NCBI RefSeq assembly: GCF_963506605.1
Contig: NC_083287.1
Coordinates: 9,424,001 to 9,488,000 of the forward strand
Length of the DNA stretch: 64,000 nt
Direction: 5' to 3'
From: Zootoca vivipara
Lineage: Eukaryota
The position numbers were made by a program, and so were the translations under genes. Position 1 is the first letter of the stretch. Each line of letters begins with the position of its first letter. Below, in pieces: positions 3,001-57,150 of this stretch. Below the pieces are notes generated by a model, which saw only the letters and a list, made by a program, of their open reading frames with translations, was not told the DNA's origin and did no database searches.

Positions 3001-5504
3001 TGAACCCTCTTAGCCTATCCTACTAATTCTGAACACCTGCTTGCCACAGTGTGGCAAATTGATCCACCTGTATGCTTCTTCATACACCCTGCTGATTCCC
3101 ACATGCCTTTATCACTAATATTTGGCAATGCCTCTAAGCCAGAAGTCACCCATATGATCTACATATAATTTCGGACACATATACAGAGAAGATAAATTTA
3201 ATATAGGTCTCTAATTCTCCATGTCTGAGGACATTTAAAGTTACAGCCTAGCTATTAAGGGGGCTGGGGCAGCTCATTATGTCAAAAAATACAAAATCAC
3301 CTAAATGCAAAGAATCTTGTTTCAGTTTTCACAATTTTGATGCTTCCTTCCTTCCTTATGTTAAGAAGGAGGGTATCTTTCCTGTTTCCTATCCTGTCTT
3401 ACACTACATATTCATTTGAACATAAATCCTTCCATGTCCATATTTCCTATAGCTCCAAATATAGCAAGAACTTTCTTAGATCTTGGAGGCACTTAAGCAC
3501 CCCTGATGCTATAAGTTACAATTCGCATTAGAAAATATCTCCTATTAATCTACACCAGAAATTAAATGTTAGCATTCATTTTCAATTCGCCCTTGTTAAA
3601 AATCCTGTGTCAATGGAAGTCAATCATTCTGCAGCACTCCTCCCGGGCTATTAAAATATCTGTCAATATGAATTGTAATTAGAGACGGCTAGTTCTGTAT
3701 GATCTTGCTGTATCCTACTAAGAGTTAAAAAAAAAGAAAAAAACACTTAGAAATTGTTGAAGAAAATTCAGATTGTGTTCAGGAAATTACATATGTTAGA
3801 TCAAGGCCATGTAAAAGTAAATGCATTTGCCTTTCATCCTGAAATAAATGAACAAGTGTGCCATGTGTTTTTTGTTGTTTGCATTCATTTCTGCATTAAA
3901 ATGAACAGGAGATAACAAACATATCAAGAAATCTGAAACTGAAAGAGATATAAGACTGCAACATACTATCCCTCCTGTTTTGCAGGATAGATTGTAGAAC
4001 TGAAATGAATTTATATAATCAGATGCAGATTTGTAATTTTGAAGTGATATTTTCAAAAAAAATTACAAAATCAGACCAATGAACTAGAAATTAGAAAATC
4101 TAAAATTCATTGTGTCAGAATGAGTTCATAAGATGTTTATGCTCAGAACTGATGCTTTGGAAGTTAGCAGATTTGTTAGATTCCAATTTTTACTTCAGCA
4201 GAGCTAGTCATGGTTCAGACATTATGGGCCAAAGATATGCAAACAGCATAGGTTACAGCCATAGCATCAATATTTTGATTAAATTGCATTATAAAGTTGA
4301 ATTAAATATAATACTTTTTATTTGTGAGTCATAAATAAGCACATCTTGATAAGTTGTGCTCGCCCTCTCTTCTAACCAGCTCCCTGAAGAAAAGGTTTCA
4401 GTCTCATTTCTCTTTGGGAGCCATCCCTGTTGGGAACTGTTGCTGCAGTAAACCAATGTGCATATAAACATGTTACAACATTGCATAATCCATTCTCTTC
4501 TATATGCTTCCTCTTGCCTGTAATCATGGGTATCATTTCATATTCCAGGAGAAAAAAATGTTTTTTAAGAGTAGTAAGATTCTCTGCAAAATCTAGAATC
4601 ATGGGATTGTATAATTGTAGTCGGGGGTTTCCAAGGGTCATTTAATCCCACCTCCTGCAGTGCAGAAAAGTCCTAGTTTTAGAGACAATCAATATTAAAG
4701 GGGGGGGGGAACTGTTGTACTTACTTCTTTATATCCTATAACTACAGCAATGTTATCAACAAGGGTCAATGTTCATACCTACTGAATATATCTGTTTCAT
4801 CATTTATAATGAAAGTCACTAAGCAATTAGTACATTGGCCAGAAAAATAGGCATGCCTCACAAATAATCACATGTGCTCCAATATGTCTCCCCTCCCTAA
4901 TTGTGCCCCTGCTGGTGCACATGCACATATATATACATACATAGCTTTATTTCACATCATTTCAGTGCTAAATTGAGGGTTTAAAGCTGAACAAGTATAC
5001 CAAGTCAACTAAAGAGCACTGCATTGTATTCATGGTTTTTCCCTACTAGGTCCAAGATACTGGATTCCACATTAAAAAGCCCATGACAAGAATATCATAG
5101 GAAAATGTTCTCCCATATAACATATCCCCTTGGGATGTGTTCTGGAGAACAATTCTTTCAGGTGTGTCTAGTGTCAGAAGTGAAGTTCTCCTCGACACAG
5201 AGTATTTTCAATTATTTCTCTGATATCCTCATGGGAAAAGCTCTCAAGAAAGTTTATGTATGTTCTTGGAGTGTGTTGCATTCCAGCTCTTTGTTGCTCT
5301 TAACAGTTTCCATTTTTAAAACAAAAAAATATGTTTTTAATTGTATTTTATTGTTATCAACTGACTGTATTATATTGTTTTACAATATGACTTTATTATT
5401 GTTGTATGCCACACATTGAAGGCTGTATTTGGTGGAAACGAGACGTTTAAAGTTCGATGTATGAATGAAATATCTGTCTGTGGCATTTGATGATCGGTTT
5501 ACAT

Positions 5505-5640
5505 CAGGCATCCCCAAACTTCGGCCCTCCAGATGTTTTGGACTACAATTCCCATCTTCCCCAACAACTGGTCCTGTTAGCTAGGGATCATGGGAGTTGC
5601 AGGCCAAAACATCTGGAGGGCCGCAGTTTGGGGATGCTTG
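5505..5640 (+). mobile_element. 136-bp palindromic hAT (Charlie/Buster-type, URR1-like) MITE, family A
   Basis: Termini CAGGCATCCCCAAACT...AGTTTGGGGATGCTTG; perfect 8-bp TSD GTTTACAT (5497-5504, 5641-5648) with central TA; near-identical copies elsewhere in the window. Confidence 0.93.
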
Positions 5641-7576
5641 GTTTACATGAACTTGCTCCCAGGAAAGTGAGAACAGGATTGCAGACTGGGTCACACATGC
5701 ATTTCACTGCTTGATGCTGCAGACTTGAAGCGATGAACAACTAAGCATGAACTAGTCCCTAGTCATAAAATGCACACACTATCAGGGTGAGTAGGATGGC
5801 TGGTTCTCGGTGAGAAGACAACACCCTTCTGTTCAGGCTCCTGTTCCGTCGCTGCCGCCTTTAGTTCTGTCTCCTTCCACAGCTGATCAGAGCCCTTCCC
5901 AGCCTCCACTGAAACATGCCTCCACAGGAAGATGTCTGCCAAGGCAGATTGGCATACCTGCTCCCCCTTCCCAAGTGGCTGAAGTTGGGGCAGAGAAGGG
6001 AGACATTCTGTTCCTACAAACCAGGCTCCCAGCATTTCTTAATAGCTGGTCTTTCACATATTTCTGGTCATGCATTAAGTAGAAAGCACCTAAGTGGGAA
6101 GTTGCCTGAATTTCAGGCTTTCGATTGTTTCCCTTAAATGTTGCATAAAAACACATATTACATCTAGTGGATCAAACATTATGTTTCAATGAGTGAGGCA
6201 AGTATATTTTTCTTCCAGGGGAAATTGCCAAAAAAAAAATCACTCCTCTTAAAACCTAACAGACTGATAACCTCATAAAAAATGTATCCTGAAAATTTCA
6301 AATTTCAATTCCCCCCACCTCCCATAGAGTGGTAGCATCTGAGTGGCAGTCACCATATGACTAAGGGTTATAGCCAATAGTGGATTCTGTGCACAGAAGA
6401 AGGGAGGTGATTTTCACCAATTTCCCTTCCCTTTGCCCTTTCCCAAAATCTGCCCTGGGAAGTTGGGGGTTCCTCTGGTATAGTAGAACAGGGGGAGGGG
6501 CTGAATGGGAAAGGGGGAATGCCTCCCTCCTTTCATTCACAGAAGCCTTTGATGGATCAAATAACTTTTTGTGATTGAAATTACACCTTTGGCTACATTC
6601 CTGAGCTGCAGACACCTCAGTCCTCAGAATGATTGATCCAACATGTGTCCAATCTGCAGGTCAACCCATTATCAGAAGGCATTAAGACTGAGGTGGTCTA
6701 AATGAGGTAGCTGATCTCAACCACTTATTTTTAAAAGTGTAAAGGCCATAGCACCTGCTGGCAGGTAAAATGTAGATTTCTCCAAACAAGCACCTCATTC
6801 TCCACCGCCCATTTTTTTGCTGAACTCATTTAAGAATTAGATTATGAGAAAATTTAATGTAGGTTTTGCTAGAAGCCAAGTTAAAGGTCAACTTTAACTA
6901 AAGTTTCATTTGCTAACTCCAAAACATTAATAATTATGACTAGTGATAGATATTTTTTTTAGGTGAGAAATAGATTTAAAGGATTTTATTAAAGTTGTAT
7001 TCCTCTAAAGGTTCTTTGATCCAGCAGAGTTAATGGAAAGGGGGCTATTTTCCCTGAATCCCCCTTCCCTCTGCAGCTCCCTATGCCCACCCCAAATATG
7101 TTCAAGGGGATTGGGAGACCCTTCAGTACAGTGTGGTAGGTGGGAATTATGGAATTTCCATAAATGACACACCCAGCCTTTTAGCTCATCAAATTCTCCA
7201 CTGGATCAAAGAGTTCTCCATTAGTGGATGGACACAATTGGAAGCAATCCATAGACATATTTTAAAGACAAATACATCTTCATATGAGAAAGATTGCAGG
7301 TACAATAAGACTAGGTAGGAAGTATAGACTCAGCATACCGAACCACATGCTGGAACCTCTCAAAGGAATCAGGGTGCACGCTACAGAGCCAGGATTCTGA
7401 TTAAGTTGCCAGGTGCAAGGAAACCTGTTCTGCATATGGGTACTACCTCTTTGTTACCCCAATCCAGTTATAAAAGCACCTGGGAACCAGAGGAAAAAAA
7501 GGAAAGAAAAGTAGAAGATCAACAGAAATAGAAGAAGGCAAACTGAAGAGGAGCGAAAAAGGGCCAAGCACTAGAG

Positions 7577-7711
7577 CAGGCATCCCCAAACTCAGCTCTC
7601 TAGAATTTTGGAACTACAGTTCCCATCATCCCTGATCACTGGTCTTGTTAGCTAGGGATGATGGGAGTTGTAGTCCCAAAACATCTGGAGGGCCAAGTTG
7701 AGGGGTGCCTG
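7577..7711 (+). mobile_element. hAT Charlie-type MITE, family A
   Basis: Same sequence as 5505-5640; perfect TSD CACTAGAG (7569-7576, 7712-7719). Confidence 0.92.
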
Positions 7712-7749
7712 CACTAGAGGCATGGTAATCGGTCCTTTCTAGGAAAGGA

Positions 7750-7858
7750 ACAGGCTGTAACTCAAGAGTAAGTCATATGTTTTGCATGAAAAGGGTCCCA
7801 AATTCAGTCCCTGCCGTCTCCTGATCTGACTTGATATAAGGTCACCTTCTACGATCCT
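7750..7858 (+). mobile_element. Degenerate tRNA-derived SINE (Squam3-like)
   Basis: GCTGTAACTCAAGAG...TTTGCATGAAAAGGGTCCCAAATTCAGTCCCTG resembles the tRNA-Ala-like A/B-box head of squamate SINEs; similar to 52275-52775. Confidence 0.45.
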
Positions 7859-9987
7859 AAGAACTTTTCTTTAAAATGACGGCATTTTGTAGGTTACATT
7901 TTTCCTTATGTAGTCATGCCTCCAATATTAGCTGAGACTAGAAGAAGTTATCTGGCTTTGGGGGGCTAATGTTTGGCACAAACACCAGATGCATCTTGTG
8001 CACAATTTTGTTGTACTCATTTCTTTGCAATGAGGAGAATCGGGACAGAGACCAAACAAAAACAAACAAACAAAAAACCTCCCAAATGATCTTTTCGTGT
8101 TTTGGAAGCTTTCCCAAATGGCCATTTAAGTTTGCTCATTAGGCTCCCAAGGTCCAAAAGCCTTAGTTTAGAAAAAGGCAGAGTGGCCTAATAAGACTTT
8201 CCATTCTACTGCAGATGCAATATTTATGAAATTGTTATAATGTTTCTGCAGCTGATTTGTGGGCAACAGGCTAAAGTGGAAGCATGTTAACAAGCAAAAA
8301 GGCAAAAGTTTTTCTATTGCCTTCTCTAAAAATAAAATAAAAACACCTGTGACTCATTTTTGAAAAAGGAGATGAAGTGAAGGGATGTGCTCCTCTGCAG
8401 GTAACTGTGTCCAATTCATTGACAACATATTCCTTTTACCATGCCAAAGATGGGAACATTCTTAGTCAATGCAGTTCTGGTATAGTGCTTAGCTGCATTG
8501 TCCTTCATTGTGTTGGCATAATTCGCTTGTGCTCCAAGCAAAATATGAAAATCATATGAGAAAAGAAGTGTATTTTGCTTGAAGCACAAGATATACTGAG
8601 TTATACTGATGAGAAGAAAAAAATCTAATCTTTATCCACAGATTTTAAAGAATACACGATCAAGAACTATGAATAAACTAAAGAAAAAGAAGAAGGATTC
8701 CTGGTGCCTTATTTTCATCTGGATTCACATGGGGTTTATATTTAAAGAGGGAATTGCCAAAATGCCAAAAAAGAGAGAGAAAAGATGAGTCCAAATATTA
8801 ATGCAATATCTCCACTAAATACTGCTTATGGATTGTGTCAAATTAACTGTCTCGAGGTCAGCTATTTAAAATAGAATATCTCACATTTGGACAAACTGTT
8901 TATAGCTTTATTTGCTTTCTTAAGAGACCATTGTTTTTTAAATAATAAAAACCAGGGTGTGATCCAATGTAAATCAAGTCTTATTGGAAGAGACCATATT
9001 TGTGTTTACATCCTATTGGGTGCTGATATACTCAAAATACAATTTCAACCATCCATATGCAAAACCATAATACTCAGGCATCTCTTGCACAGTACTGGAA
9101 AACTGTACTTACACCATGGCAATGATTCTACACTGAAGACATCTTAGTAGCTTAGGGGAAATAAAAATTGTCTAATGTGGAAATAATGTAAATGCTTCTA
9201 AAACATTAAGGTTTCTTTTGCAGTTATCATTTCGTACGCATTCTTTAGATGACTACGACAGTTGAAATGATTCTATCACAGAATGTTTTGCATGAAACAC
9301 TATGCTCAACTAATCAACAAGAGCGGGAAAAAAATTAAGTGCATAGTATTCTAATCACTGTAGTTAACTTTTAGTGATTCCTCCTCCCAAAAAAGAAACC
9401 TGCTTTACATGAATGCAATCCTTTGTAAGAGAATATTTTTGGCAATGCAGTTCTTTCTAATCATTCAGAATATTATCCTAAAAAGTAATCAAAATTATCA
9501 TTCAAAAAACATATTTGGCTAGAAATGTTCCCACTCCAATAAGCTCTGGTTATCCCTTCAGAAAGCAGTCTTGCTTATATTATGTCACTCTTATTCTCAC
9601 TTCACTATGTCTTGCACTATGAACAGTGTAAACAATATCACTTGGCCCAAGACAGATGTGGATCGACAGAGCCCAAGTAATTATAAACAGTGGAACAGAT
9701 CTGTTGGTTCTGAGGTTTACCATTTGCTGTGCTGTATGGTAAAGAACTGGCCAATCTCAGCTTCCTAGAGCATGCATTTCCCATATCACATCTTTACAGT
9801 TTTGTATTTAATATTTTATATGAAAATATGAAAATTAGTATTTGCCTACTAAAAAAAAAGTACAAACACCAAGGAGACAGACTGACTAATCTCCTGCTTT
9901 CAGTGAAGTGGCTCATAGATTTCCAAGCTCATTGCATCTTACAATATTTCACACTAATATCATCTATATAAGCCATGATAGTTAAAT

Positions 9988-10172
9988 TGCATCTCCATGT
10001 TCAGAAGCAGTGTAATTTTGCACACATAAATGTGGAAGAACACTAAAGGACATGGCTATCACTTTCATACCCTGCTTTGGTTCCTGAAATATCTGGCTGG
10101 CCACTATTAGAAAGAGAATATTGGACTAGAAGGGTTTTGATTTGATCCTGCAAGACCACTCATCTGTTCTTA
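9988..10172 (+). mobile_element. Old CR1-derived 3' UTR fragment
   Basis: CTCCATGTTCAGAAGCAGT...CTGGCTGGCCACT...GGACTAGA...TGATCC...TGTTCTTA; similar in reverse to 26640-26860, 36620-36750 and 51440-51600. Confidence 0.5.
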
Positions 10173-10375
10173 CATGGTGCAGAAACCATTTATAGTCCAG
10201 ATCACCTACTCTTTGGGCATAATGTCAGGCAAAAATTTTTTGAATTGTGCACTTTCTCTGAAAAATAAGTCTAAGCAGGATTCCTCTTAAACCTATAGTT
10301 CCAATCTAAAACAATGAAAAATATGTCTGAATATTATGTAGTTATTTTGCTTCTGTCCTCTCATTCTTTGCATTA

Positions 10376-10451
10376 CAGGTAGGTAGCTGTGTTGGTCTGA
10401 AGAATTGTGCATGCACACGAAAGCTCATACCTATGACAAACTTAGTTGGTC
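10376..10451 (+). mobile_element. Penelope-like element pLTR mini-insert with hammerhead core and inverted 5' segment
   Basis: 11-bp TSD TCTTTGCATTA (10365-10375, 10452-10462); CTGAAGA...TGTGCATGCACAC-GAAAGCTCATACC...AAACTTAGTTGGTC shared with 60845-60928. Confidence 0.8.
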
Positions 10452-12740
10452 TCTTTGCATTAGTAAGAAAGGGGGGGCATCAAATTGTGTTACCTATCTA
10501 GACTTACTGCTACTCATTTAGCAAACTCCCAGAAAGTTCAGTTCTTGATCCAATGAAAAGAACTGCCAAAATTACATTTCACATTGTTTAAGTAGATTTT
10601 TTTTGTCCATTGCTGTTGACCTAGGTGTGCATAAAATATGACACAACTAACCTATTGCAAAGTCAGATAACCTTGTCACACATTAATAGCTCCTAGACTT
10701 TATGGCATTTTCTGGCACATTGGTGCCCATAGCAAATTTCCAAACCTGGGCTGTTCAGGTCACATTCTAGAACAATGACAGACACCCTTCTGTAACTAAG
10801 CTGTTCTCATTGTTCCCAGTTAACACAAGGACGTGTCTCCTTCCTTTTAGCGTAATTGCCCATTTTGGAAGGGATGGGTAAGAATAACATATGGTAGCTT
10901 CTTTCTCCTTGACAATCACCGACAATAGTTTAAAAGATCTAAAACTCATTCTCTACACAATTTGTAGTAAATACTGTATAAACTAGCCAGTCCTCCAAAA
11001 ATGGATACATCCTTATGCCTGGGCAAATGGAAATGTGTTAATGTGTTATCTGAAAACAATGTATTTGGTGATTTGAGACAAGTAATTATTTGTCCCATTT
11101 GGCTACTCTGGAATTACCCAGTCAAATCCCAATGTCTCTTCCATATGCAATTTTCTTATCTGTTTTATATCTTTTCACCTGAATCGTATCTGCAGATACC
11201 CAAGGTTTAGGACTGCCCTGTAATGTACAAACACTAATAGTCTTGTGAGCACACACACGCTTCATATTGCAGAAGAGTGAGTTACTATCACAAATAGGGA
11301 GTAAGCCCCATTTAATTAGCTAACACTTTATTTCAAGTAAGCACCCATCACACTTCCAAACTTGACTTAGACAGGTAATGCTTATTTATGTCACTTAATC
11401 CAGATTTAGTCAACAAGGATTTACTCACACAACTTAAGATGCACATTAGCTCACTGGTCCACAGTACTGAAATGTTAAACATTATGTAGAATAAACAGTT
11501 ATAATACTTTAGGTACAGAACAAAAACGTTTTTACATGAAACAGACTAGCCTATTTATACAACAGACAGAACTTCTGAAAATACTTCAGATGCATGCATC
11601 AGATTTATGAAATGATACTCTAGCAATGTGCACACATGTCATTATGTTGACCCTCCATGCAAATTTACAATTTGCATTTTGTTTAATCCATCAATACCAC
11701 CAATGGTTTGCCGCTGTTACCTTCTGCGAATACCAGAAGCAATGATTATGAACGACAGAAATTGAATAAACTTCAAAGTCTTGCACAACCATAGCATGAT
11801 AGCACAATAGTGCATGATAGTGCAATTAAGACATATAGAATTGCCTTTATTAACAAAATTATTTAACATGCTATTCCAGAAAATATTTGTTAGCAAAATT
11901 TGGGGGAAATAAACAGTGTTAATATATGTTTGTACAAAATAAAATAACCCAGATGGAGCAACAACTTTCCATTACAACTTCAAAATATCTTTCATTTAAG
12001 TTATCCCACACACTTTCCCCAACCACTGAAAATATTTGTTAAATATATACTGCCTTAATACTGCCTAGCATATTAACATAAATGGAATTGGGAATGATGA
12101 TTCACCACAACCCGCAGACCGCTTTTACCTTTGCAATCTTTTTCTTTTTTCCCCCCAGTAGCCATAGCCAATCATTGCTCTCCTCTTCCATTATGCTTCT
12201 TTATAGCAGACTGAGATGCTTCTTCATTAAGTAGTGTTACAAATAGAACACACCCGAACTCCCAAGTGGAGCATGCTCTAACGACGCTAGTGCTACAGTT
12301 CTCAAGGTAACCAGGCTCAGTTGGAAACTGAGAGCAAAGTCAATGTAAGATTAGTTACGTATTTGCAAGCCTTAATTGCACATTGCAGCTTGCCTCAATC
12401 CATGATGAACTCTCTTCAGAAGAACAGTATTCAGTTAATTTTTTAAGCAATGCAGATAAAAAAAGCAAAAAAAACAAACACAAAACACAAATTTTACCAT
12501 TCTTATACTTAAAGCAACATATAATTTTAAACTCTTTTTTTTAAAAAATGTACAGCACATCAGACAAGCCAATCCAGTTAGTCATAAAACAATATAAGTC
12601 TCTTCTCTTGTTGCCTTACACAATATGGACAGTTGTAACACTGATGGATTTAAACACAGCAGCAGAAAATGAGAAAGCGTGCAGTTCAGAAAAATGCTTC
12701 TGGCTCACAGAGGTCTGGACGAAATGGTACTTTTCACAAA

Positions 12741-12777
12741 GAAGAAGAAGAAGAAGAAGAAGAAGAAGAAGAAGAAG

Positions 12778-12806
<29 letters not shown>
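12741..12806. repeat. (GAA)22 microsatellite
   Basis: Perfect trinucleotide run. Confidence 0.98.
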
Positions 12807-12808
<2 letters not shown>

Positions 12809-13282
12809 TGTTGTTCTCAACATAAACCTGGTTGTACAACAGAATAGTGAAATGAACCCATGCTTTGTTTATCCCCAAGAAAACAAAGCATCTGGAGGAT
12901 ACAAATGTTCAGATAAAAGTGCAACATAATAGCAATGAAGTAACTGCAAGCAATGAACACTGCAGAGTTCAGACAGCTCACTTTTAATTTCAGATACAGT
13001 ACTTAAATGAGATACAGAAGCTGCAAAGCTGTTTCTTCCATGGCATCATATGGATGCTAACCCAAATGTAGGCTACTACTTTCTACCAAATCAAAACACA
13101 GCAGCTAAGCCTTAGGAATACCTGAAAACAATACAAGATGCTTTACTGTCTTTCTGACAATTTTAAGAAAGTTTTATGCTTTATCTCCCCCCCCCCTTCT
13201 TTTACACACTATCTGGAAACCACTGCTGCTAAGTAAATACTGTATTCAGATAATCATAATGGCAAAAGACAGCTGAAATTAC

Positions 13283-13301
13283 CATGCTTCTCCAACTCCA
13301 T
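13283..13301 (-). CDS. Candidate main-ORF start MELEKH(G..), 19 nt, followed by a phase-1 intron; gene not identified
   Basis: Best Kozak context in the exon (GACA ATG G: -3 A, +4 G) and open into the donor; alternatives are the ATG at 13312-13310 (MIGQWSWRSM) or a terminal ATG|gt; no downstream coding exon recognised in 1-13282. Confidence 0.35.
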
Positions 13302-13308
13302 TGTCCTA

Positions 13309-13515
13309 TCATCTGGGATCTAATCTCTGGCGTGAGGGTGGGATATCTTGAACTGTCATTTTGAGAATGCTCCCATGTTGCCAACGCGTTCTGAATCTTA
13401 TCAGGCAAGCAATGCTTTCAACAGATTTCAAGCCACCTACCCAAACCTGTACCATTTCCCCATCACTAGCAATTCTGCCAGCCCCTTCCAACCTTACTCC
13501 TAAATTATCCGCCAT
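13309..13515 (-). CDS. Candidate 68-aa upstream ORF (MADNLGVRLEG...RLDPR) contained within exon 2
   Basis: ATG lies 10 nt after the splice acceptor and the stop lies 26 nt before the donor; its TGA overlaps the next ATG (ATGA). Confidence 0.35.
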   Translation of the reverse strand: MADNLGVRLEGAGRIASDGEMVQVWVGGLKSVESIACLIRFRTRWQHGSILKMTVQDIPPSRQRLDPR

Positions 13516-27667: not shown

Positions 27668-28068
27668 TAAAGAAGGCTGATCGCCAAAGAATTGATGCTC
27701 TTGAATTATGGTGCTGGAGGAGACTCTTGAGAGTCCCATGGACTGCAAGAAGATTAAACCTATCCATTCTGAAGGAAATCAGCCCTGAGTGCTCACTGGA
27801 AGGACAGATCGTGAAGCTGAGGCTCCAATACTTTGGCCACCTCATGAGAAGAGAAGACTCCCTGGAAAAGACCCTGATGTTGGGAAAGATTGAGGGCACA
27901 AGGAGAAGGGGACGACAGAGGATGAGATGGATGGACAGTGTTCTCGAAGCTACAAACATGAGTTTGACAAAGCTGCAGGAGGGAGTGGAAGACAGGAGTG
28001 CCTCGTGTGCTCTGGTCCATGGGGTCACGAAGAGTCGGACACGACTAAACGACTAAACAACAACAAAA
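27668..28068 (+). mobile_element. 5'-truncated BovB (RTE clade) LINE
   Basis: KKADRQRIDALELWCWRRLLRVPWTARR...HGVTKSRTRLND; (CAA)n tail. Confidence 0.96.
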
Positions 28069-28539
28069 ACATTAGCAGTCCATATAGGTTCTCCACAGAC
28101 AGGGATGTGGGGCTGGTGGGAGAGCTTTATTCCCCACCCCTTATGCATGAAAAGAGGGAGACCAGGTATCATCAAGGTATTTTCCTTTATAAGCCAATTT
28201 GCAACTCTTCTAAGCCCAGTTAGCTATATCCCAACTCTTATGCAAGCAGATCTCAAGAGGTAGCTCCCCCTGGGATTTCCAGTGAAATGCTATCATTAGA
28301 CATATGGCTACCAGTAGAAAGGGGGGGGATCAAATCTTTCTGCTGGATAGTAGGGTTGGAATTTGGGTTTAGTGAAAGCCGGGCTAAGGCTGGGTTTGGT
28401 GAGAGAGGTTGTTTTAACCATTTTGGATGAGATATAGAAGGCCCTGGTCCAAAACATATAAACAATTTTGCGTTCCCACCAAGCATGAAAATATGTTCCA
28501 AGGTTCCATACTCTGGCTTCTCCTCAGATCATATTTGTG

Positions 28540-32500: not shown

Positions 32501-33209
32501 AAAAAGATGTTCCAAAGTGCATGTTCATTCCTGAAAGTAAACAGAAAATAAGCAGACCAGTACCCTAAGTTAGCCAAAGTTGAGTCAAGACCATTGGGTT
32601 CAATAAGCATGTTTAGGTACTTAAGTAAGATGCATCTGCCCAACTTTGGCAAGCCACATTTTGGGAATAATTCACAGGACTTGTTGCTAGGTACCATATC
32701 TCTGGGATCCTACTTCAGCCTTCATCACAACAGTGGCTGCCTGACTTAGATTTATCTTGTCAAGTGTGTCAGAATCCTTTCCAGAGATAGATTCCAATTT
32801 ATACAATAAATTCCAATATATTGTATAGATATTGTCCAATTTATTGTCCAAAATATTGTATAAATAGATTCCAATTTATGCAATAAATACAACATTTAAA
32901 AATCCAGTTGATTCAAAATTAATACTCAGTTGTAGTCTGCACATTGAAAAAGGCAAATTGCAAATTAACAGCCCTGGTTTTGTGTGTGGTTGTTGTTACA
33001 CATGGATTCCTTTGGCTCCGACTCACTTTGCAAAAAGTTGCAAACGTGTCTATTTCCTGTAGCCAGATCCCCATCCAGTATTTTATACAGCACCTAGGGT
33101 AGTATACATAGTTTTGGTCACTGTTGGATGGCTGATTCCAATCACCCACCCTCACTTTCCTCTTGGAAATGACTTGTATCTACCATCTTTGGGTGTGTGT
33201 ATGCAGGGT

Positions 33210-33992
33210 AGATATGCAGATGACACAACCTTGTTGGCAGAAAGTGAGGAGGAATTAAAGAACCTTTTAATGAGGGTGAAAGAGGAGAGCGCAAAATATG
33301 GTCTGAAGCTCAACATCAAAAAAACCAAGATCATGGCCACTGGTCCCATCACCTCCTGGCAAATAGAAGGGGAAGAAATGGAGGCAGTGAGAGATTTTAC
33401 TTTCTTGGGTTCCATGATCACTGCAGATGCTGACAGCAGTCACGAAATTAAAAGACGCCTGCTGCTCGGGAGAAAAGCAATGACAAACCTAGACAGCATA
33501 TTGAAAAGCAGAGACATCACCTTGCCGACAAAGGTCCGTATAGTTAAAGCTATGGTTTCCCCAGTAGTGATGTATGGAAGTGAGAGCTGGACCATAAAGA
33601 AGGCTGATCGCCGAAGAATTGATGCTTTTGAATTATGGTGCTGGAGGAGACTCTTGAGAGTCCCATGGACTGCAAGAAGATCAAACCTATCCATTCTGAA
33701 GGAAATCAGCCCTGAGTGCTCACTGGAAGGACAGAGCCTGAAGCTGAGGCTCCAATACTTTGGCCACCTCATGAGAAGAGAAGACTCCCTGGAAAAGACC
33801 CTGATGTTGGGAAAGATTGAGGGCACTAGGAGAAGGGGACAACAGAGGACGAGATGGTTGGACAGTGTTCTCGAAGCTACGAACGTGAGTTTGACCAAAC
33901 TGCGGGAGGCAGTGGAAGACAGGAGTGCCTGGCGTGCTATGGTCCATGGGGTCACGAAGAGTCGGACACGACTAAACGACCAAACAACAACA
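33210..33992 (+). mobile_element. 5'-truncated BovB LINE with an uninterrupted RT C-terminal frame
   Basis: RYADDTTL...GLKLNIKKTKIM...YGSESWTIKK...TKSRTRLND; (CAA)n tail; 13-bp TSD ATGCAGGGTAGAT (33201-33213, 33993-34005). Confidence 0.97.
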
Positions 33993-35461
33993 ATGCAGGG
34001 TAGATCATTACAGCTTGTAACATATCCTGACTCTTGTAACAGGGCCACACATTTTTTCTTCCTAACCGACTAACAATACCTGACCTTTAGCAAAACTACC
34101 AATCTGTCCTTAGCTGAACTAAGTAAGATAAAGATAGGAAAATACCATCCTTTCAAAAGCATCTTAACCCAACTCTTCTGGGGTAAGGGAAAAAAATTAA
34201 TAATTTAATCAAGGCAAGCTAGGATCAATCATGCTATTTGAAAGGATTTCCTGATGAATGACAAGTCATTAAAATGGACCTGCTGAGAAAACAAACCAGC
34301 CCATGTGAGGTCTCAATAATGTGACCCTGGAATGTCAAATGGGGGCGGGGAATTGAGGAGCAAAACTATTGAACCAAAGGGAAATATTAAAAATAAGGAT
34401 TGTTCAGTTTTCTTGTGAACTTGTAAAGAACAAAGCTACAACAGTTGGCTTGAACTGTTTGATCAATGATTGTTAACTCCTCTTCATAAAGAACAGTTTG
34501 TTTAGGGTCTCTTTCTTCTTCCTCTTCCACACCCCAAGCATTTTGCAGTTATGGAACGGTGCTTGATAAATCCATTTTGGCTGAGACATTATGCAGGTGC
34601 ACAACAAGCTAACCAAAGGCTGCAAATTAATAGTTTAGGACTAATAATTGCTCATCCTCTGTACAGCAGAACATTCAGCCCAAATCTGCATGTATTCCTA
34701 TATTTTATTAACTCTTTTACCCCAGGAAGTGAAGATACTGTTCTCCTTGCCTGAGTTAAGTTCTGATGTGACTCTTGATTCAGCACAGAAACTCTGTGGA
34801 TGTTAAGGGTTATCTGTGTGTGCTGTTGTACTTACCTTTCTGTCAGCTACCAGGGCTCATCCAACATATTTTGCTGCCTGAGATAAAGGGCAAGATGCTG
34901 ACTCCTCTCTGTTGCCATATTTTGAAGAGCAAAAAAAGAGGACACATTTGCCGACTTCTGCTTTTAACTATGGATCGCCACGATGACTCTCATTTCAAAA
35001 CAGAGGACGTGTCCTGGGAAAAGAGGACATATGGCAACCTCCCCATACAGAGGATTCCCATGTTACTTTAACAATGGTGGTGAGACAGCACCATCTACTG
35101 AATCTCAGATAGCATGGTTAAGTTTAGGGGGGTGGGCCAAGGAGACTGTATGGAATACACATATTTTTCACTTAAAAGTGGAATGGTTTGGAGGACGTGA
35201 CTTAGAAGGAACAGCTAGAGGGCTGTCATCACTCCCCTCCCCCCAGCATTTGCTGCCTGAAGTGGTCACCCCATTTTGCCAAACAGTAGGGTCGGCCCTG
35301 GAAGTTACCATAATAGTGTACAACCAATCCATTTGATGTAGCCCATCAAATGAAAGCCTGGAATGTCAGGTTGAAACTACACAGCAACACAGGGAGAAGG
35401 GAGAAGGGTGGGCGCTGTAAACCTATGTCTTCCATCATTCGTTGTCTGGTGACATTTAGTG

Positions 35462-36210
35462 TAAGGTTACCAGATATATTTTTTTCAATAAAGCCGGGGA
35501 CACGTAAAAATAAATAAATAAATAATAGATTTATTAATTTTTTGAAAAGAGAAAAAAAATTAAGAAAAAAATCAACACCACAGATCAAAGTTTGCTTTAA
35601 AACTGAGCTTTGGTTGGTTGTTTTTTTTTTTTAAAAAAAAACCCACCATGCAATGTATTAAATCCAGCATTTCCTCACCTTACATGTATCGGGAGCTCAA
35701 AAAGATGTGCCGCATATATAAATACGCAGCAGTTTTAGTCCCGCGCGAGACCTACCCGGCTTGGCCTGGTCTCCCTCCACCTTCACGGGTGAGCGCCGCG
35801 CTGAGGCAAAAACCAAAAGGAAACGGGCGGCAGCTCACCTGGCAGTGGGCCAAGGCCACCAGGCCAACGGCTTTACCGATCACTGCCATCGCGGCCACTC
35901 CATCGCTCAAGCCAGCTGCCTCTTCTTCCACCGTGGAAACCCGGCCCACCTTGCCCTGCCCCTTCTGCCACCAGCCAAGCCACTCTGCCCTTGCTTGCCG
36001 CCCCCCCCCGGCCACACTGCCCTTTCGGCCTTTCTCCGGCAAGCCTGTGGGGCATTGGGTGAGAGGCTTTTTTCGATGAAGCCTGGCTCCAGGCTGCTGA
36101 GATCACCGCTGCCATGTTTCCCAGGGACATTCGGGGGACAGAATTTGTCCGGGGACAAATTTGCAAATCCAGGGACTGTCCCTGGGAAACGGGGACGTCT
36201 GGCAACCCTA
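35462..36210. mobile_element. 749-bp non-autonomous hAT (Blackjack/Ac-like) element with GC/CpG-rich cargo
   Basis: TIRs TAAGGTTACCAGA / TCTGGCAACCCTA; perfect TSD ATTTAGTG; subterminal GGGAC repeats; ends shared with 43156-43279. Confidence 0.88.
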
Positions 36211-36619
36211 ATTTAGTGGGGAAAGTGTGGGTGATGTCATCCCAGTACCATGTCCTCACCACTCTGCTCCATTGGCTGCCATCGGGGCAAGGAAATGCTA
36301 CAATCCTGGCATCATGTAAGGCCTTTTCTTCTGAGTATCTTGCTAGGAAGACATTTATGGGTGGCAAGCACTTGTCTCCCCATAGCAGTCCTTTGGGAAA
36401 GTGTGTTAAACAGAAATGAAGGAGCTGGGCCCATGCTCCATTGCACCAAGCCAAGAGTGCAGGGCAGGCCATTCGGGCAGGGTGGCGATGAGGCTTAGTG
36501 TTGTGCCCAAACCCACCCCCCAATTTCTTGCCCTGAGAAAGCGTTCCTTCCCTGAGAAAGAGGCTTCTGTTTCTCCACAATCTGCCTCTTTCTCAAAACA
36601 CCTTCAGATTCCTTTAGAA

Positions 36620-36768: not shown

Positions 36769-37015
36769 CATAGCTGCCAACCGTCCCTTTTTTTGCGGGA
36801 AACTCTCTTATTCCAAGCCACAGCTGTCAACTTTCCCTTTTTTTGCTGGAAATTCCCTTATTCCAGCGCTGTTTCCCGCTGCTATCCTGGATTGTTAGAT
36901 ATACCGTAGACTGTCCCCAGGACAGGTGAGGCTGCTGATCCCTTATTTCAAATCCGAAAGTGGACAGGTAAGGCTCCTGACCCCTTATTTTCAAATCCGA
37001 AAGTTGACAGCTATG
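36769..37015 (-). mobile_element. hAT MITE, family B, empty copy (no nested A)
   Basis: TIRs CATAGCTGCCAAC / GTTGACAGCTATG; perfect TSD GACCCTGT; single copy of the GTCTACGG site (CCGTAGAC at ~36904-36911); internal ~40-bp duplication. Confidence 0.93.
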
Positions 37016-39632
37016 GACCCTGTATGGCTGCATTCCTTCACATACTGTGAAGAAGCCATTTCAGGTTTCTCTCTCCTTATTTGCTTTAAAGGAGACATGC
37101 TGAAATAGCAGCAGACAAGGCTGTGTACAGATTTGAAAAGATGAATGGAAGCTTAGGCCGCAGAAAGGAAACGGCGCTTTAACCGCTCGCGCTCTGAAAC
37201 GGCACCTTTCGCACTGAAGATCAAACCTCTGAGAAATTCAGAACCAACCATACCAGCCATGACTGGATGCAGGAAGTGCAATGGACAATAATGTGAGGTG
37301 AGGTCCTGAGCTGAATGTTTGCTTCAACAATGCATTCACAAGGTGGCATAAGGCCAACCACGCTGCCTCGTGTCCATCCCTTCTCAAACTGCCCTGCTGC
37401 CCTGGGCTCCTTTGGAGGAAGGTGTGGAATATAAATTTTAACTCAACAAACAAACAAACAAATGTGAGGATGATAATTCTAGCCTACATCAGAGCATTCT
37501 TGTAAGGACAACTGAGATAGTGAATGCCAAGGGCTTTGAGCACTCTGAAGCACAGCATAAATGTCATTAGCTTTGAGCTACTTACTCTGGGCTGAGCCGT
37601 TGCTCCTAGATCAATTCTCCCTCAATTCCAAAATAATGAACTACCATCATAGCCGTATTTGAGATAGCGCCCTTGTGCTTTGAGCACTCTACAACACTCA
37701 GTATTCTCTGGGAAAGTAAAGATAGGAAATGTCACCTTTATTGTAGCATCAGCCATAACAGATTACAATGATTCTCTCGTACCGTTCTGGGCAAATACAA
37801 ATTTTACACTGTCTGTTTTTAATTAGGGATTGCACTCTCCTTTATACTTACTTGATCTTGTCAGTTTCAAAGCTGTCCTTTAATGCTTGGCTGGCAGTTT
37901 TTAATTGCTCACCAAATGCTTATTATAAAGCTTTCATAAAAACCGCGCATTGTTCACAGTGGATAGCTATTGCAAAAGAAAAAAAAAACCCAACCTGTTG
38001 CTATTGCAACTGGTGACTGAAATTATTGTACATAATATGATGGTCATTTCAACCTAGACTGCCAGTATCAACTCTCCCATTTTACCTTATAGACTCTCTA
38101 GGAGTTGGAAGCTTTGCAGAAGTTTAACACAGACAGTCCTTTCCATGACTGCATAACTGCTCCACCTGTTGCCTTTCTACCTACTGTAGAATCCTGGATC
38201 CTAAGACAAAGTAACTTAAGGAAACTCAAGGAAAACAAGATCCCCCTCTCCCCCCTCCCCACAGCAACCAGCTGTGCCCCGCCTCTCCAAGACCATATGG
38301 AGTGTGGCAATGGGGGCTTATGTGAACTTCTTTAACTTAACTTGGAATCCAACCCTGATTTTGAGCAATTCTACCCTCACAAAGAAAACCCTGATGCCCA
38401 AATTAAATTGTTTAAGGGGGTGTAAGTGGCTGTAGGGAGGAGGAAAGGAAAAGAAAGGAAACTTCCCCGAATTTCCTTAAATTAACTTATATTCAGTTTT
38501 GAGCCACAGTCTGTAAAGAGGTTGGGCCAGCAATTCATTTTAGAGGTTCTGAAAGGTCACCAGCACTGAAACGCTTTTACTCCCCCCCCCAAAAAAATCC
38601 CTGACATGTTTAATTTGATCTGGAACCTCCGAATGCATCTTCCCTTAAACTCAGGTGAAAGTTGGGAGCAGCAGAACTCAACCGAGGAATTTCTCATTCC
38701 CTATCAGAGCTTCTTCGTTTTTCTTTGAAATCCCTTGCTTATCAGGACTTGAGCAGGAATCTGCGTATTTGCATTGCATGTTGCTTTAAGTGGAGATGCA
38801 AATCTGTTTTAGGTGAGGATGTAAATCCATCAAATTCTGCCAAAAGCGGAAGGGAAGGCCAATGCAAATGGTTCAACTCAGCTGAAACACATGGAAATGA
38901 AGCTAAAAGAATTTCCATCGGTGCTGCTCTGAATATTCTCTGCTGATGGTGAATATTCTCTTGCGGAAGGTAAGTTCTGGGTAGAATTCCTCATCCTCAT
39001 TTTTATTTCCATTAAAAAAAACCACCACCACCATATTGTAACAATATGTAGCCAAACTCATTATACGTCAAAAATACTTGCTTCCAATGCAGAAAAAGAA
39101 AACAAATGAAGAAAGATAGAATGGAATATGAACTGGGAGAGGATAACAAAACTCTACAGGCACCTCCCCAAACATGTGTGATCAGCATGCACATGACTGC
39201 CGACACATGTGTGATTTTTGGCACTGAGAGAGAACAGAGTGGGGGTGGCAAGGGTGGGGTGGGGGCGGAATGGGCCAGAATGGACTTGTGCATTTGATTG
39301 ATGCATGCAGCTGCTGGGAACAGAACCCCCGCGTAAGTAGAAATTCCCCTGTATAGCACCATGAATAAACTAAAAGGAAAAATATCATCATTTTTAATGT
39401 TATTCCTAAAATGTAAAAAAAGCCCCAGTCATCCTCCTTTAAAAAAAAAAAGTATGTCCCCCCCCCATTTCTGTCTGTTTGTTCAAGGAGGCAGGAGAGG
39501 ATATATTGTTTCATAATATCTTTCCAAACTTGTGCTAGCAAGTTATAACATTGCCCTTTTAAATACACAGTGGTTAGCTTGTTGCAAGCTCATTTAAGCT
39601 TCTCAAGATAGGATTCCTGGTAATCCCCTTTA

Positions 39633-42971: not shown

Positions 42972-43115
42972 NNNNNNNNNNNNNNNNNNNNNNNNNNNNN
43001 NNNNNNNNNNNNNNNNNNNNNNNNNNNNNNNNNNNNNNNNNNNNNNNNNNNNNNNNNNNNNNNNNNNNNNNNNNNNNNNNNNNNNNNNNNNNNNNNNNNN
43101 NNNNNNNNNNNNNNN
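42972..43115. other. Assembly gap (144 N)
   Basis: Run of n. Confidence 1.
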
Positions 43116-43155: not shown

Positions 43156-43279
43156 TAAGGTTACCAGACGTCCCCGCTTCCCGGGGACAGTCCCCAGATT
43201 TACAAATCAGTCCCCATACAAAATCCACTGAAATTGAAAAGTATCCCTGGACTCATTGAAAAAAAATCTGGTAATCTTA
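43156..43279. mobile_element. 124-bp minimal hAT (Blackjack-like) MITE with the same ends as 35462-36210
   Basis: TIRs TAAGGTTACCAGA / TCTGGTAATCTTA; TSD ACCAAAAC/GCCAAAAC. Confidence 0.87.
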
Positions 43280-43338: not shown

Positions 43339-43688
43339 CATAGCTGCCAACTTTCGGATTTGAAAATAAGGGATCAGGAGCCTCACCTGTCCCGGGGACA
43401 GTCTATGGCAGGTATCCCCAAACCTCGGCCCTCCAGATGTTTTGGACTACAATTCCCATCATCCCTGACCACTGGTCCTTTTAGCTAGGGATCATGGGAG
43501 TTGTAGGCCAAAACATCTGGAGGGCCATAGTTTGAGGATGCCTGGTCTATGGTATATCTAACAATCCAGGATAGCAGTGGGAAATGGCGCTGGAATAAGG
43601 GAATTTCCAGCAAAAAAAGGAAAAGTTGACAGCTGTGGCTTGGAATAAGGGTTGTTTCCCGCAAAAAAGGGGAGGGTTGACAGCTATG
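43339..43688 (+). mobile_element. hAT MITE, family B, carrying a nested family A MITE
   Basis: CATAGCTGCCAAC...GTTGACAGCTATG; perfect TSD TGCCTTGG. Confidence 0.93.
43409..43544 (+). mobile_element. Family A MITE nested in a family B copy
   Basis: Perfect TSD GTCTATGG; forward orientation. Confidence 0.93.
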
Positions 43689-43991
43689 TGCCTTGGCAAT
43701 GCTGAGCAAACCAACACTAGGATTTTCCTGCGGCCACTAGGAGTGTTGCATGGAGTTAAGCCCCTCCACATTTGAATTCATCATGGCAAGCTGCTAAGGG
43801 GTAGCAAGAGAAGATAATTTTCATATCCCCAATGGCGTATTCTGATGCTGATGAAGGCATAAACACATTTTTCAGCATTCTTGATTAAGACCCCAGGAAC
43901 ATAGTTCTCTTCAAATTAGATCTTTCCTTTCCACCTGTTCACCCCGCCCCGACCCACTCCACTAGTTTCCATCCTTAATGGGGATTAAAAA

Positions 43992-44081
43992 CATAGCTGT
44001 CAAGTTCTCCCTTTTTTAAAGGGAAGTTCCCATTTGCTGAATAGGCTTCCTCACCAGAAAAGGGAAAACTTGACAGCTATG
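43992..44081. mobile_element. 90-bp hAT MITE with family B-type TIRs
   Basis: CATAGCTGTCAAGTT / AACTTGACAGCTATG; perfect TSD ATTAAAAA. Confidence 0.9.
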
Positions 44082-45076
44082 ATTAAAAAGAAAAGAAAAG
44101 AAAGTCGACAAATTGGTGCAAAGAGTAGAAAACTGAATTTAAGACTGGAAAATGGAGAAACTCGGAGTTCCAAACCTGGCAGATCCTTCTGTTCCCAGTT
44201 CCAGTTCAGTGTAGATCAGACAGCTACTTACGAAACTTAAAGACATTAGGAGCTATTTATTTGTAGTCTCGCTATTCTGCATTAATTCTTCACAAACACC
44301 CTTTAGACCTCCTCCTCACAACATATTGGTTTTGTATCTAATAAAAGGGCAACTTGGTGCTTAGTGAAGCAAACAGTGAATTACATAGTTAGTCTCTGCT
44401 CCCAAAATTAATAACATTTTTTTAAAAAAACCACACCAAACTATAATTAGGCTAATTGTGAAACGCTGGAAGTATGACATCTGTCTTCAATCATTGACTC
44501 ATACTATGCATAGAAATGAATTAACTAGTAATGATATCAGGACTTCTACCCAGTAATATATTTTCCTATTATTTTAGATGTCCACCATTAGGTTTTATGA
44601 CTCATAAAAGTCTCTTTGAAACAGCCTATGCATATTATTTCTTTCAAGTGAAAAGCCGCCTTTGTCCAGGTGTTTAAAATGAACCACTTGAATGATTCTT
44701 TGCTGATTCTTTTTTCTTCCCACACCTTTTGTCAATTAATTAAAAACATCATCTGTTTTTTGATATATCGGATGGTTCTGCTAGGCAAAGTTCATACCTA
44801 TGGATTATTCCCATTGAGGAAACTAGTGATTTTTTATTATTACTTTCTGTTCCGGGCTGTTTGCTGTATACATGTCTTGACCAATCAATGAACAACACCA
44901 ATATAGGCAAAACATGGGGAGGAAAATATAATATGTTAATGGACATGGTCAGCAGGGCAATGAGAAGTTGGGATTTAGTGTTTTAATGATGAAACCCATG
45001 CCTTTCAATACAAGGGGGCAGTGCAGGCAGACTACTGCCTTTACCTCATCTTCTAACCATAGCTAGGAAATCAGTA

Positions 45077-45592: not shown

Positions 45593-45809
45593 GCATAAAC
45601 CATGGTTAGTGATGGTGCTACACTGCAGAGATACAGCAAACCATAGAAGGGGAAGTTACTGAGTGTTTTCTTTTTCTTTTTTTCCATATCTAAATGCTCC
45701 TGCAATGTTCATGATCATACTGCTAGAACTGAGAGCTTTCAGTTCTGACTGCCCTGCAAGTCCCTTAAAAAATGGGGACGATGACAAATTTGCATAACAA
45801 TTGCATATG

Positions 45810-46139
45810 CTTGAGAGTCTCATGGACTGCAAGAAGATCAAACCTATCCATTCTTAAGGAAATCAGCCCTGAGTGCTCACTGGAAGATTGTGAAGCTGAG
45901 GCTCCAATACTTTGGCCACCTCATGAGAAGAGAAGAATCCTTGGAAAAGACCCTGATGTTGGGAAAGATTGAGGGCACTAGGATAAGGGGACAACAGAGG
46001 ACGAGATGGTTGGACAGTGTTCTCGAAGCTACGAACATGAGTTTGCGGGTGGCAGTGGAAGACAGGAATGCCTGGCGTGCTCTGGTCCATGGGGTCACGA
46101 AGAATCGGACACAACTAAACGACTAAACAACAACAACAA
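45810..46139 (+). mobile_element. 5'-truncated BovB LINE with small internal deletions
   Basis: LRV.WTARRSNLSILKEISPECSLE / KLRLQYFGHLMRR...; (CAA)n tail. Confidence 0.95.
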
Positions 46140-54988: not shown

Positions 54989-55291
54989 CATAGCTGCCAA
55001 GTCTCCCGTTTTTAAAGCTGTTTCCCGCTGTTATCCCGAATAGCAAAATATCCCGTAATTCCCCTGGATTTTCAAAGCAGCTCCTGCTGGCCAGGGAGGC
55101 TCCTTCTGCGCATGTCTGGACATGCACAGAACCAATTTCGGGTGCCGCTTTGCCCATGTCTGGGCACCGGAAACCGGGTAGCGCTGGCACCGGAAGTCGC
55201 TTCTACGCATGTCTGGACATGCGTAGAAGCGACTTCCGGTGCCACGCCGCTGCTGATCCCGTATTTTTCAATCTGGGAGTTGACGGGTATA
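54989..55291. mobile_element. Family B-related hAT MITE with a long internal palindrome
   Basis: 5' CATAGCTGCCAAG, 3' GTTGACGGGTATA; perfect TSD GGCCAGTC; CpG-rich. Confidence 0.87.
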
Positions 55292-56239
55292 GGCCAGTCC
55301 CCTCTCCAGACTTCAGATTATGCAGACAATCTGAGTGCAGAATTGGGAAATTTCGTCTGAAATACTGCTGGGGGGGGGGGAGTACTTGCTTATCCATGCT
55401 AATCATCTGTGTGACCTTTATATGAGCTAAACTCACACCTGCAATTGGTTTAAATGGAAATAAAACTCTTGAAAATCATTTTGTATGGGTATTTTTCTAT
55501 AGTCACTGCACAGTACTCCATGGCTCAAAGGCATGTGGTGAAAAGATAAAGATTTCCCCCCCCCCCCCGAGTGTAGATATACCTGAACTAAAGCTTCTAT
55601 GTGCTCCAGAGGGAATTCAGGGTAACGGTTAAGAAACAAAATGGGCAAAAATAGTAGAACATAGTGAAGTCTGACAGATTCCTGTGTGTCCTTGAACTAG
55701 CTTGCTTTTTCACCTCCCTTTAGCTCCCTTTCCAAGCCAGTTATTGGACTTCAATCCTGCATGTCTAGTCTTTTTCCTGACCACAATAGCCCTTGCCAGC
55801 CTTATTACATATTTATCCTGCTCTTCCCACAAATGACTCAAGAGCATATCAGGTTCTCCCCACCCCACCCACATTTCATCATCACAACAATCATGTGATG
55901 CTGAGATAATATCTGGCTGGCCTCAAATCACACATATCAGGGCTTCCCAGGTATCAAGGTTTATCAATGCCGGCTGATCTTTCTTGAAAACCAGCAATAC
56001 TGTTCACACATAAGTTTATCCCTAAAAAACTGTTACTTCATTCATTTCTTTCTGTCTCGTCTTCCTTTTTCATATCAACACCTTGAAAACATTTACCTCG
56101 AAATGAATAGTCTTAACATTCCTCAGTCTGTTGTTCTCAATATTCTATTAATGGAGTTCTTGGAATCTAGATCGGTCAGCTCTTACAAATTGCAGCAAAG
56201 TGGAACCTCCATGTTCAGTAAAATATACCTCTGAATAGC

Positions 56240-57150
56240 AGACAAGGTTGTATATTGTCTCCCTGCTTATTTAACTTATATGCAGAATTCATCATGCGAA
56301 AGGCTGGACTAGATGAATCCCAAGCCGGAATTAAGATTGCCGGAAGAAATATCAACAACCTCAGATATGCAGATGACACAACCTTGATGGCAGAAAGCGA
56401 GGAGGAATTAAAGAACCTTTTAATGAGGGTGAAAGAGGAGAGCGCAAAATATGGTCTGAAGCTCAACATCAAAAAAACCAAGATCATGGCCACTGGTCCC
56501 ATCACCTCCTGGCAAATAGAAGGGGAAGAAATGGAGGCAGTGAGAGATTTTACTTTCTTGGGCTCCTTGATCACTGCAGATGGTGACAGCAGTCACGAAA
56601 TTAAAAGACGCCTGCTTCTTGGGAGAAAAGCAATGACAAACCTAGACAGCATATTGAAAAGCAGAGACATCACCTTGCCGACAAAGGTCCGTATAGTTAA
56701 AGCTATGGTTTTCCCAGTAGTGATGTATGGAAGTGAGAGCTGGACCATCAAGAAGGCTGATCCGCCGAAGAATTGATGCTTTTGAATTATGGTGCTGGAG
56801 GAGACTCTTGAGAGTCCCATGGACTGCAAGAAGATCAAACCTATCCATTCTTGAGGAAATCAGCCCTGAGTGCTCCCTGGAAGGACAGATCGTGAAGCTG
56901 AGGCTCCAATACTTTGGCCACCTCATGAGAAGAGAAGAATCCTTGGAAAAGACCCCTATGTTGGGAAAGATTGAGGGCACTAGGAGAAGGGGACGACAGA
57001 GGACAAGATGGTTGGACAGTGTTCTCGAAGCTACGAACATGAGTTTGACCAAACTGCGGGAGGCAGTGCAAGACAGGAGTGCCTGGCGTGCTATGGTCCA
57101 TGGGGTCACGAAGAGTCGGACACGACTAAACGACTAAACAACAACAACAA
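56240..57150 (+). mobile_element. 5'-truncated BovB LINE (RT C-terminal half, one +1 frameshift at ~56762)
   Basis: RQGCILSPCLFNLYAE...NNLRYADDTTLMAES...; (CAA)n tail; extra C in GCTGATCCGCCG relative to the 33210 copy. Confidence 0.97.

Follow-up and report, generated by a model that had tools for sequence, protein, structure and literature searches.

A 749-bp non-autonomous hAT-type insertion in the genome of Zootoca vivipara with an interior that resembles the 5′ end of a gene

The non-autonomous hAT families of the anole are described as mostly deleted versions of autonomous elements, and lizard hATs take up cargo, uptake having been described in the anole hobo families (PMC3014272). These families have shared ends and family-specific centres, which are reported to arise via deletion and uptake of genomic DNA; the cargo described consists of fragments of other transposons, and the word ‘exon’ is absent from the main text of that paper. 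Tol2, a vertebrate hAT, carries a spliced transposase gene of four exons (PMC8151067), so that splice donors can belong to a hAT without having come from a host gene. Animal Pack-TIRs, as presented by Tan et al. (2021; PMC8277862), are elements whose terminal inverted repeats (TIRs) enclose a few hundred GC-rich bp, with the target-site duplication (TSD) intact, and are defined by an identified parental locus. Only four multicopy Pack-TIRs are given in that survey of 100 reference genomes (in frog and alligator), and its lists contain none for anole, garter snake or painted turtle and no hAT consensus in the anole library. Both anole and frog are thus known to have hATs with cargo.

The locus reported here lies in a window of 64 kb from Zootoca vivipara (the whole stretch of DNA analysed, 64,000 nucleotides), which has a GC content of 41.5% and contains many short inverted-repeat elements and fragments of LINEs, repeats of the types seen in squamate reptiles. 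An element of 749 bp at positions 35462–36210 is flanked by the identical 8-bp sequence ATTTAGTG at 35454–35461 (left TSD) and 36211–36218 (right TSD). Its 13-bp TIRs, TAAGGTTACCAGA on the left (35462–35474, plus strand; the 3′ end in the minus-strand reading) and TAGGGTTGCCAGA on the right (36198–36210, minus strand; the 5′ end in the minus-strand reading), match at 11 of 13 positions, and their termini, TAAGG and TAGGG, conform to the YARNG rule as stated in PMC3014272. The left subterminal region (35475–35503, plus strand) contains one copy of the motif GGGACA at 35497, whilst the right (36116–36197, minus strand) contains a GGGAC(A) array, with copies at 36124, 36135 and 36152 on the plus strand and 36182 on the minus strand, together with a 17-nt inverted repeat. 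The duplication of ATTTAGTG around the entire 749 bp indicates one insertion event; the initial assignment to the hAT superfamily is upheld by the 8-bp TSD and the YARNG termini, and we conclude that 35462–36210 is a real hAT-type non-autonomous insertion. A Pfam scan of 14 open reading frames (ORFs) of the element found no hAT transposase domain. TAGGG-type termini combined with GGGAC subterminal repeats, as present here, are features which we take to be those of the hAT-Blackjack group (Blackjack, MER81, MER94). These three are given by name only in the text of PMC5753468; no paper connecting the terminal motif with Blackjack was found, nor, in a search with most subscription journals and the repeat databases outside its scope, one on the element’s family.

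The element resembles the hobo-N1..15_AC families of Anolis carolinensis (Novick et al. 2010, PMC3014272), which likewise have 8-bp TSDs, YARNG termini and lengths from a few hundred bp upward, as well as ends that are shared around differing centres; unlike in those families, the TAGGGTTGCCAGA/TAAGGTTACCAGA TIR pair is missing from Table 1 of that paper. Tol2 has in common with it an 8-bp TSD, imperfect TIRs and subterminal repeats, but differs in being autonomous and 4.7 kb long, the likeness being one of described structure (PMC8151067). The resemblance to animal Pack-TIRs extends to the TIRs, the GC-rich interior and the intact TSD; however, the parental locus by which Pack-TIRs are defined (PMC8277862) was not found for this element within the 64-kb window.

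The ends had been described initially as matching those of a 124-bp MITE at 43156–43279 (plus strand; flanks identical at seven of eight positions). The similarity is real, since blastn aligns the outer 70 nt of the right end to the MITE with 82.9% identity (E 3.7e-15) and the left end to MITE positions 43241–43279 with 78.6% identity over 42 columns (E 0.003), and the first 13 nt of the MITE are identical to TAAGGTTACCAGA. However, the MITE has TAAG at both of its ends, and one of its TIRs is unlike that of the element; ends which are only about 80% alike, with one TIR differing, imply that the two are related subfamilies and not a single element with and without an insert. CpG positions account for four of the 12 differences between their ends. 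An assembly gap of 144 bases (42972–43115) is located 40 bp to the left of this MITE.

Several other repeats are found in the window. A reverse transcriptase match is located at 33063–34073. Just to the left of the 749-bp element, at 34850–35300, two more inverted-repeat elements are nested in an area that is an insertion cluster; one of them, at approximately 34912–35040, has a related GGCAACC end (a blastn match to the element end) and lies inside or beside another. A second family, whose ends are of the CATAGCTG...CAGCTATG type and whose interiors vary, is represented at 36769–37016, 43339–44084, 54989–55290 and 20381–20487; the first of these copies has two strong donor-like sites, and the family can serve as a control for transposon interiors that look like exons. 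Four 3′ fragments of one LINE, presumably RTE/BovB-like, are present at 27668–28069, 33210–33996, 45747–46139 and 56222–57150, two of them being 98% identical over 300 nt. A minus-strand open frame of 219 codons at 21815–22474, and a protein-looking plus-strand frame of 65 codons at 22068–22265, have no Pfam match.

On the minus strand, the element begins with a TIR and the GGGACA array, continues through a GC-rich leader that includes CCAAT and a GC box and then through the donor cluster, and finishes with an AT-rich tail containing AATAAA and the second TIR. The leader-like block (35881–36067, minus strand) is G-rich, with a G-skew of 0.41 (−0.41 on the plus strand, compared with −0.30 for the genuine CpG island at 13726–15275, which lies 20.2 kb from the element and contains a long, likely non-coding first exon of the nearest gene, on the minus strand, with its donor at 14103), the stretch 35881–36054 resembling that island in its G-skew; the block contains GGGCGG at 36003 and CCAAT at 36058, and is depleted in CpG with an excess of TpG and CpA. 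The AT-rich tail (35504–35689, minus strand; 24% GC, no CpG) contains donor-like sites at 35683, 35678 and 35646 and the sole minus-strand AATAAA, at 35535, 73 bp inside the far TIR, a word whose chance occurrence is expected in sequence of 24% GC. When scored with a splice matrix, with at least 7 bits taken as donor-like, 35504–36110 has six donor-like sites on the minus strand and one on the plus strand. Six such sites on either strand were obtained in one of 2000 dinucleotide shuffles and 13 of 2000 trinucleotide shuffles, and in two of 416 windows of 610 bp across the whole sequence. The minus-strand donor cluster, the G-skew and the GC-to-AT gradient bear out the gene-5′-end look that was attributed to the interior, a likeness which exceeds chance. 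On the plus strand, a TATA-like word at 35715 is followed, some 70 nt on, by a donor-like site at 35789, mirroring the minus-strand arrangement at 35889, such that a first exon is readable in either direction.

The ATG, 17 codons and donor reported by the initial annotation are present: the minus strand reads GCCGCGATGG at 35889, encodes the peptide MAVIGKAVGLVALAHCQ, and reaches CAG|GTGAGC at 35839/35838, giving an exon-like segment at 35839–35889 whose unspliced frame extends over 45 codons to 35752. The donor at 35838 ranks 16th among 6310 GT sites, but is neither the sole nor the best donor of the element, as the site at 35678 has an equal score and another lies on the plus strand at 35789. 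A strict form of the ATG-to-donor pattern (R at −3, ATG, G at +4, an open frame and MAG|GTRAG), which was picked post hoc, arose in 32 of 5000 dinucleotide shuffles and occurs at two places in the whole 64-kb window; shuffles keeping 2-, 3- and 4-mers yielded it 19, 60 and 102 times per 2000, respectively, and a looser form was found in 364–1196 of 2000. Counted within the element, the ATG at 35889 is not the first in good context, since that at 35903, 14 nt upstream, has the same G−3/G+4 context and opens an out-of-frame ORF of seven codons (35880–35903, minus strand) which overlaps it. There are four out-of-frame ATGs upstream of 35889 inside the element, three of which read across it.

A CpG island is conventionally a stretch of at least 200 bp with a GC content above 50% and an observed/expected CpG ratio (o/e) of at least 0.6. 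The claim of a CpG-rich core holds in so far as 35651–35975 qualifies (GC 0.585, o/e 0.76), but the island is marginal: o/e is 0.61 over 35735–36110, compared with 0.87 for the genuine island (0.83 over 13726–15275) and 0.29 in the window, and falls to 0.50 in the supposed promoter and 5′ UTR (35881–36110), where TpG is 1.56 and CpA 1.39, values which rest on approximately 10 CpGs. CpG is thus not retained upstream of and over the exon; the richest block (o/e 0.88; 35690–35880), which includes the plus-strand TATA-like word and the donor-like site at 35789, is in the supposed intron. The ratio for a 421-nt core, 0.66, is below that of all 16 windows of the same length from the genuine island (0.74–0.97), the counts being small. 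Ten segments of the window satisfy the same definition, several of them within other repeats, and the interior of another MITE, at 54989–55290, has an o/e of 0.89; CpG richness alone therefore marks young repeats in this window.

An imperfect fold-back at 35761–35867 contains an exact 10-nt inverted repeat with CGGC on both sides, and its inner arms constitute the donors at 35838 (minus strand) and 35789 (plus strand). Its folding has a z of −2.30 (four of 200 shuffles); the inverted repeat with its flanking CGGC repeat was obtained in 5 and 8 of 3000 shuffles; when the flanking repeat was not required, the counts were 408 and 553 of 3000. At 36068–36086 (plus strand) the left subterminal motif recurs inside the element as a direct copy, matching at 16 of 19 positions (0 of 500 shuffles) and at 15 of 19 to the MITE version (one of 500), at twice the depth of the MITE match; elsewhere in the 64 kb the motif occurs only at the two known element ends. 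Sequence typical of the element can therefore be traced inward for 143 bp from the right end, so that any foreign cargo comprises at most 35504–36067. A complete nested mini-element (36055–36210) was considered and rejected, as the would-be TIR beside the motif matches at only 6 of 13 positions; the motif is instead either a subterminal repeat or a product of template switching. A search for nested TIRs with TSDs returned 11 candidates, ten in A/T runs and one corresponding to the fold-back. The only tandem repeat in the element is AAAT. Inverted 7-mers at the level of the interior were seen in 18 of 1000 shuffles, the corresponding values being 15 of 1000 for a window of the genuine island, 0 of 1000 for two other MITE interiors and 144 of 1000 for a third; an interior made up of repeats of its own is thus not supported, since it is less self-repetitive than two of the three other MITE interiors.

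Searches for a parent of the interior within the 64-kb window by blastn and nhmmer gave best E-values of 4.4–4.7, the MITE control giving E 9e-10. Pfam searches with eight ORFs of the element returned a best E of 0.041, to an unrelated family, and six further ORFs gave none at E 0.05. A 42-residue stretch ending in the MAVIGKAVGLVALAHCQ peptide, compared by word index with longer proteins, matched none of 102 candidates at E 10, 17 residues being near the detection limit. In further word-index searches, the plus-strand 171-residue frame matched none of 136 candidates and a 164-residue frame none of 156; an element end intended as the positive control was also unmatched, so the collection may hold no such reptile ORFs and these word-index negatives are weak. 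Exact protein look-up returned none of 10, and the ESM Atlas no usable match (best 0.79). The two phmmer matches among 1.84 billion representatives were to long tandem-repeat proteins scored over 8–9 stretches and are regarded as artefacts. The PDB gave two matches at E 2 or worse and no nucleocapsid; antibody light chains matched by a minus-strand frame (E 0.099 or worse) were attributed to chance, with no V-set match. Plasmids and bacterial and archaeal genomes contained no match to the element, three phage records matching over 44 nt at E 0.01 were ascribed to chance, and four Rfam matches were all far below their gathering scores.

The transposase’s own leader, the second option of the initial annotation, fits the layout described above better than does a captured host exon. 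To judge from the sequence, the 749-bp element is most likely an internally deleted autonomous hAT which has kept its own leader and lost the transposase frame between its ends, a reading to which we give an even chance. The autonomous parent would keep a GC-rich promoter and leader with donors at one end and an AT-rich polyadenylation end at the other, and the transposase frame between leader and tail would have been deleted. A transposase produced elsewhere would then have moved the shortened element as a single cut-and-paste unit, the 124-bp MITE would be a more deeply deleted relative, and the leader would be methylated and decaying, leaving the copy silent. The minus-strand order of TIR, leader, donors, AATAAA-containing tail and TIR is the residue expected of a transposase unit without its coding part, and the polarity along the element’s axis, comprising the G-skew, the donor ratio of six to one and the AATAAA near the far TIR, supports the same origin. 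Likewise, the upstream out-of-frame ATGs and the lack of a homologue for the peptide in the searches above are easier to reconcile with a leader than with a coding exon of the host. Set against this, a captured host promoter would give the same polarity, the 14 ORFs scanned with Pfam contain no transposase remnant, and the interior is not repeat-built as two of the three other MITEs are, such that foreign DNA is equally compatible with it.

Alternatively, the interior could be a non-genic filler or composite, made of genomic DNA or pieces of repeats joined by gap repair or template switching, in which case its exon-like features would be incidental; we consider this to be a less likely origin, albeit one to be taken seriously. 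Both the copy of the left-end motif at 36068 and the CGGC-flanked fold-back, which makes both donors, are oddities of the kind left at junctions; other repeats are equally CpG-rich, and the second of the two 610-bp windows with six donor-like sites begins in another MITE. Uptake of genomic DNA by hobo_AC elements (PMC3014272) provides a precedent, and only 13.4% of animal Pack-TIRs, in the figures of PMC8277862, carry exonic sequence. However, neither the excess of donors on one strand nor the skew would be expected of random filler, the poor TIR match beside the 36068 motif does not support a nested mini-element, and there is no source for such filler within the 64-kb window.

The initial proposal, that a Pack-TIR had taken up the CpG-island promoter, the first exon and the start of an intron from a host gene, we regard as about equally unlikely. 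It draws on the rarity of the strict ATG-to-donor pattern, on a donor cluster and G-skew like those of the genuine island, and on the passage of 35651–35975 above the GC 0.5 and o/e 0.6 thresholds, and it has a precedent in the frog element hAT-N8_XT, which contains 291 bp of the CAPSL 5′ UTR; multicopy Pack-TIRs are also reported to favour GC-rich cargo (PMC8277862). Nonetheless, no parent is present within the 35 kb to the left or the 28 kb to the right, whereas 160 of 281 single-copy Pack-TIRs in that survey lie less than 15 kb from theirs, which excludes the commonest class. The peptide region has no match among its 102 candidates (a weak test), an ATG of equal context is found upstream at 35903, CpG has decayed in the promoter part, and the core is poorer in CpG than every window of the genuine island; together these count against a captured host first exon. 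The more far-reaching version, in which a multicopy squamate Pack-hAT would have spread a distant host CpG-island promoter, first exon and donor as a portable alternative first exon, is in our estimation decidedly improbable.

A fragment of a retroelement gag gene on the plus strand is very improbable as the cargo. It was suggested by a zinc-knuckle spacing, Cys-x2-Cys-x4-His-x4-Cys, at 35957–35998, which lies in an open frame of 171 codons, is the only such spacing in the six frames of the window, and was obtained in 6 of 5000 shuffles and in 0 of 2000 in each of three further sets. Looser knuckle patterns, however, turn up in 34–38 of 2000 shuffles, 831–932 of 2000 contain a frame of 124 codons, and support was lacking in Pfam (no zf-CCHC at E 10), in the PDB (no nucleocapsid), among the 136 word-index candidates and in phmmer, where only the two repeat-protein artefacts were returned. 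The spacing is probably coincidental.

The nearest gene has a short upstream ORF of 10 codons at 14222, before its donor at 14103, and its intron 1 seems to pass the start of the window; no coding exon 2 of this gene is recognisable in 1–14100, and none of 64 scored candidates in the window was recognised by eye as a host coding exon. That the element is co-oriented with this gene is correct, both being on the minus strand, but the suggestion that it could splice to exon 2 is not supported, no coding exon 2 being recognisable in 1–14100 and the intron required likely exceeding 35.8 kb and passing 37 acceptor-like sites (at least 9 bits). That the copy serves this gene from a distance as an alternative promoter and first exon is scarcely credible, despite the shared strand, a matrix score of 10.6 bits for its donor against 7.8 for the gene’s own, and the chimeric Pack-TIR transcripts described in PMC8277862. 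The island is 20.2 kb and the gene’s own donor 21.7 kb distant, with 21 + 16 acceptor-like sites intervening; no exon 2 is recognisable up to the edge of the window, and the copy shows signs of methylation decay. The copy at 35462–36210 is probably silent and probably makes no contribution to the neighbouring gene, 20 kb from it.

On the best reading, the locus adds a further non-autonomous hAT to a reptile genome full of repeats, and as such matters little. If it has kept its own leader, the element could be used to probe how its autonomous parent is organised at the 5′ end; it also cautions that the GC-rich interior of a young transposon can pass for a CpG-island first exon. Were the interior instead a host first exon present in many copies, it would amount to a Pack-MULE-like promoter shuttle in squamates; given that the anole library listed in PMC8277862 has no hAT consensus, a proven squamate Pack-TIR would fill a real gap.
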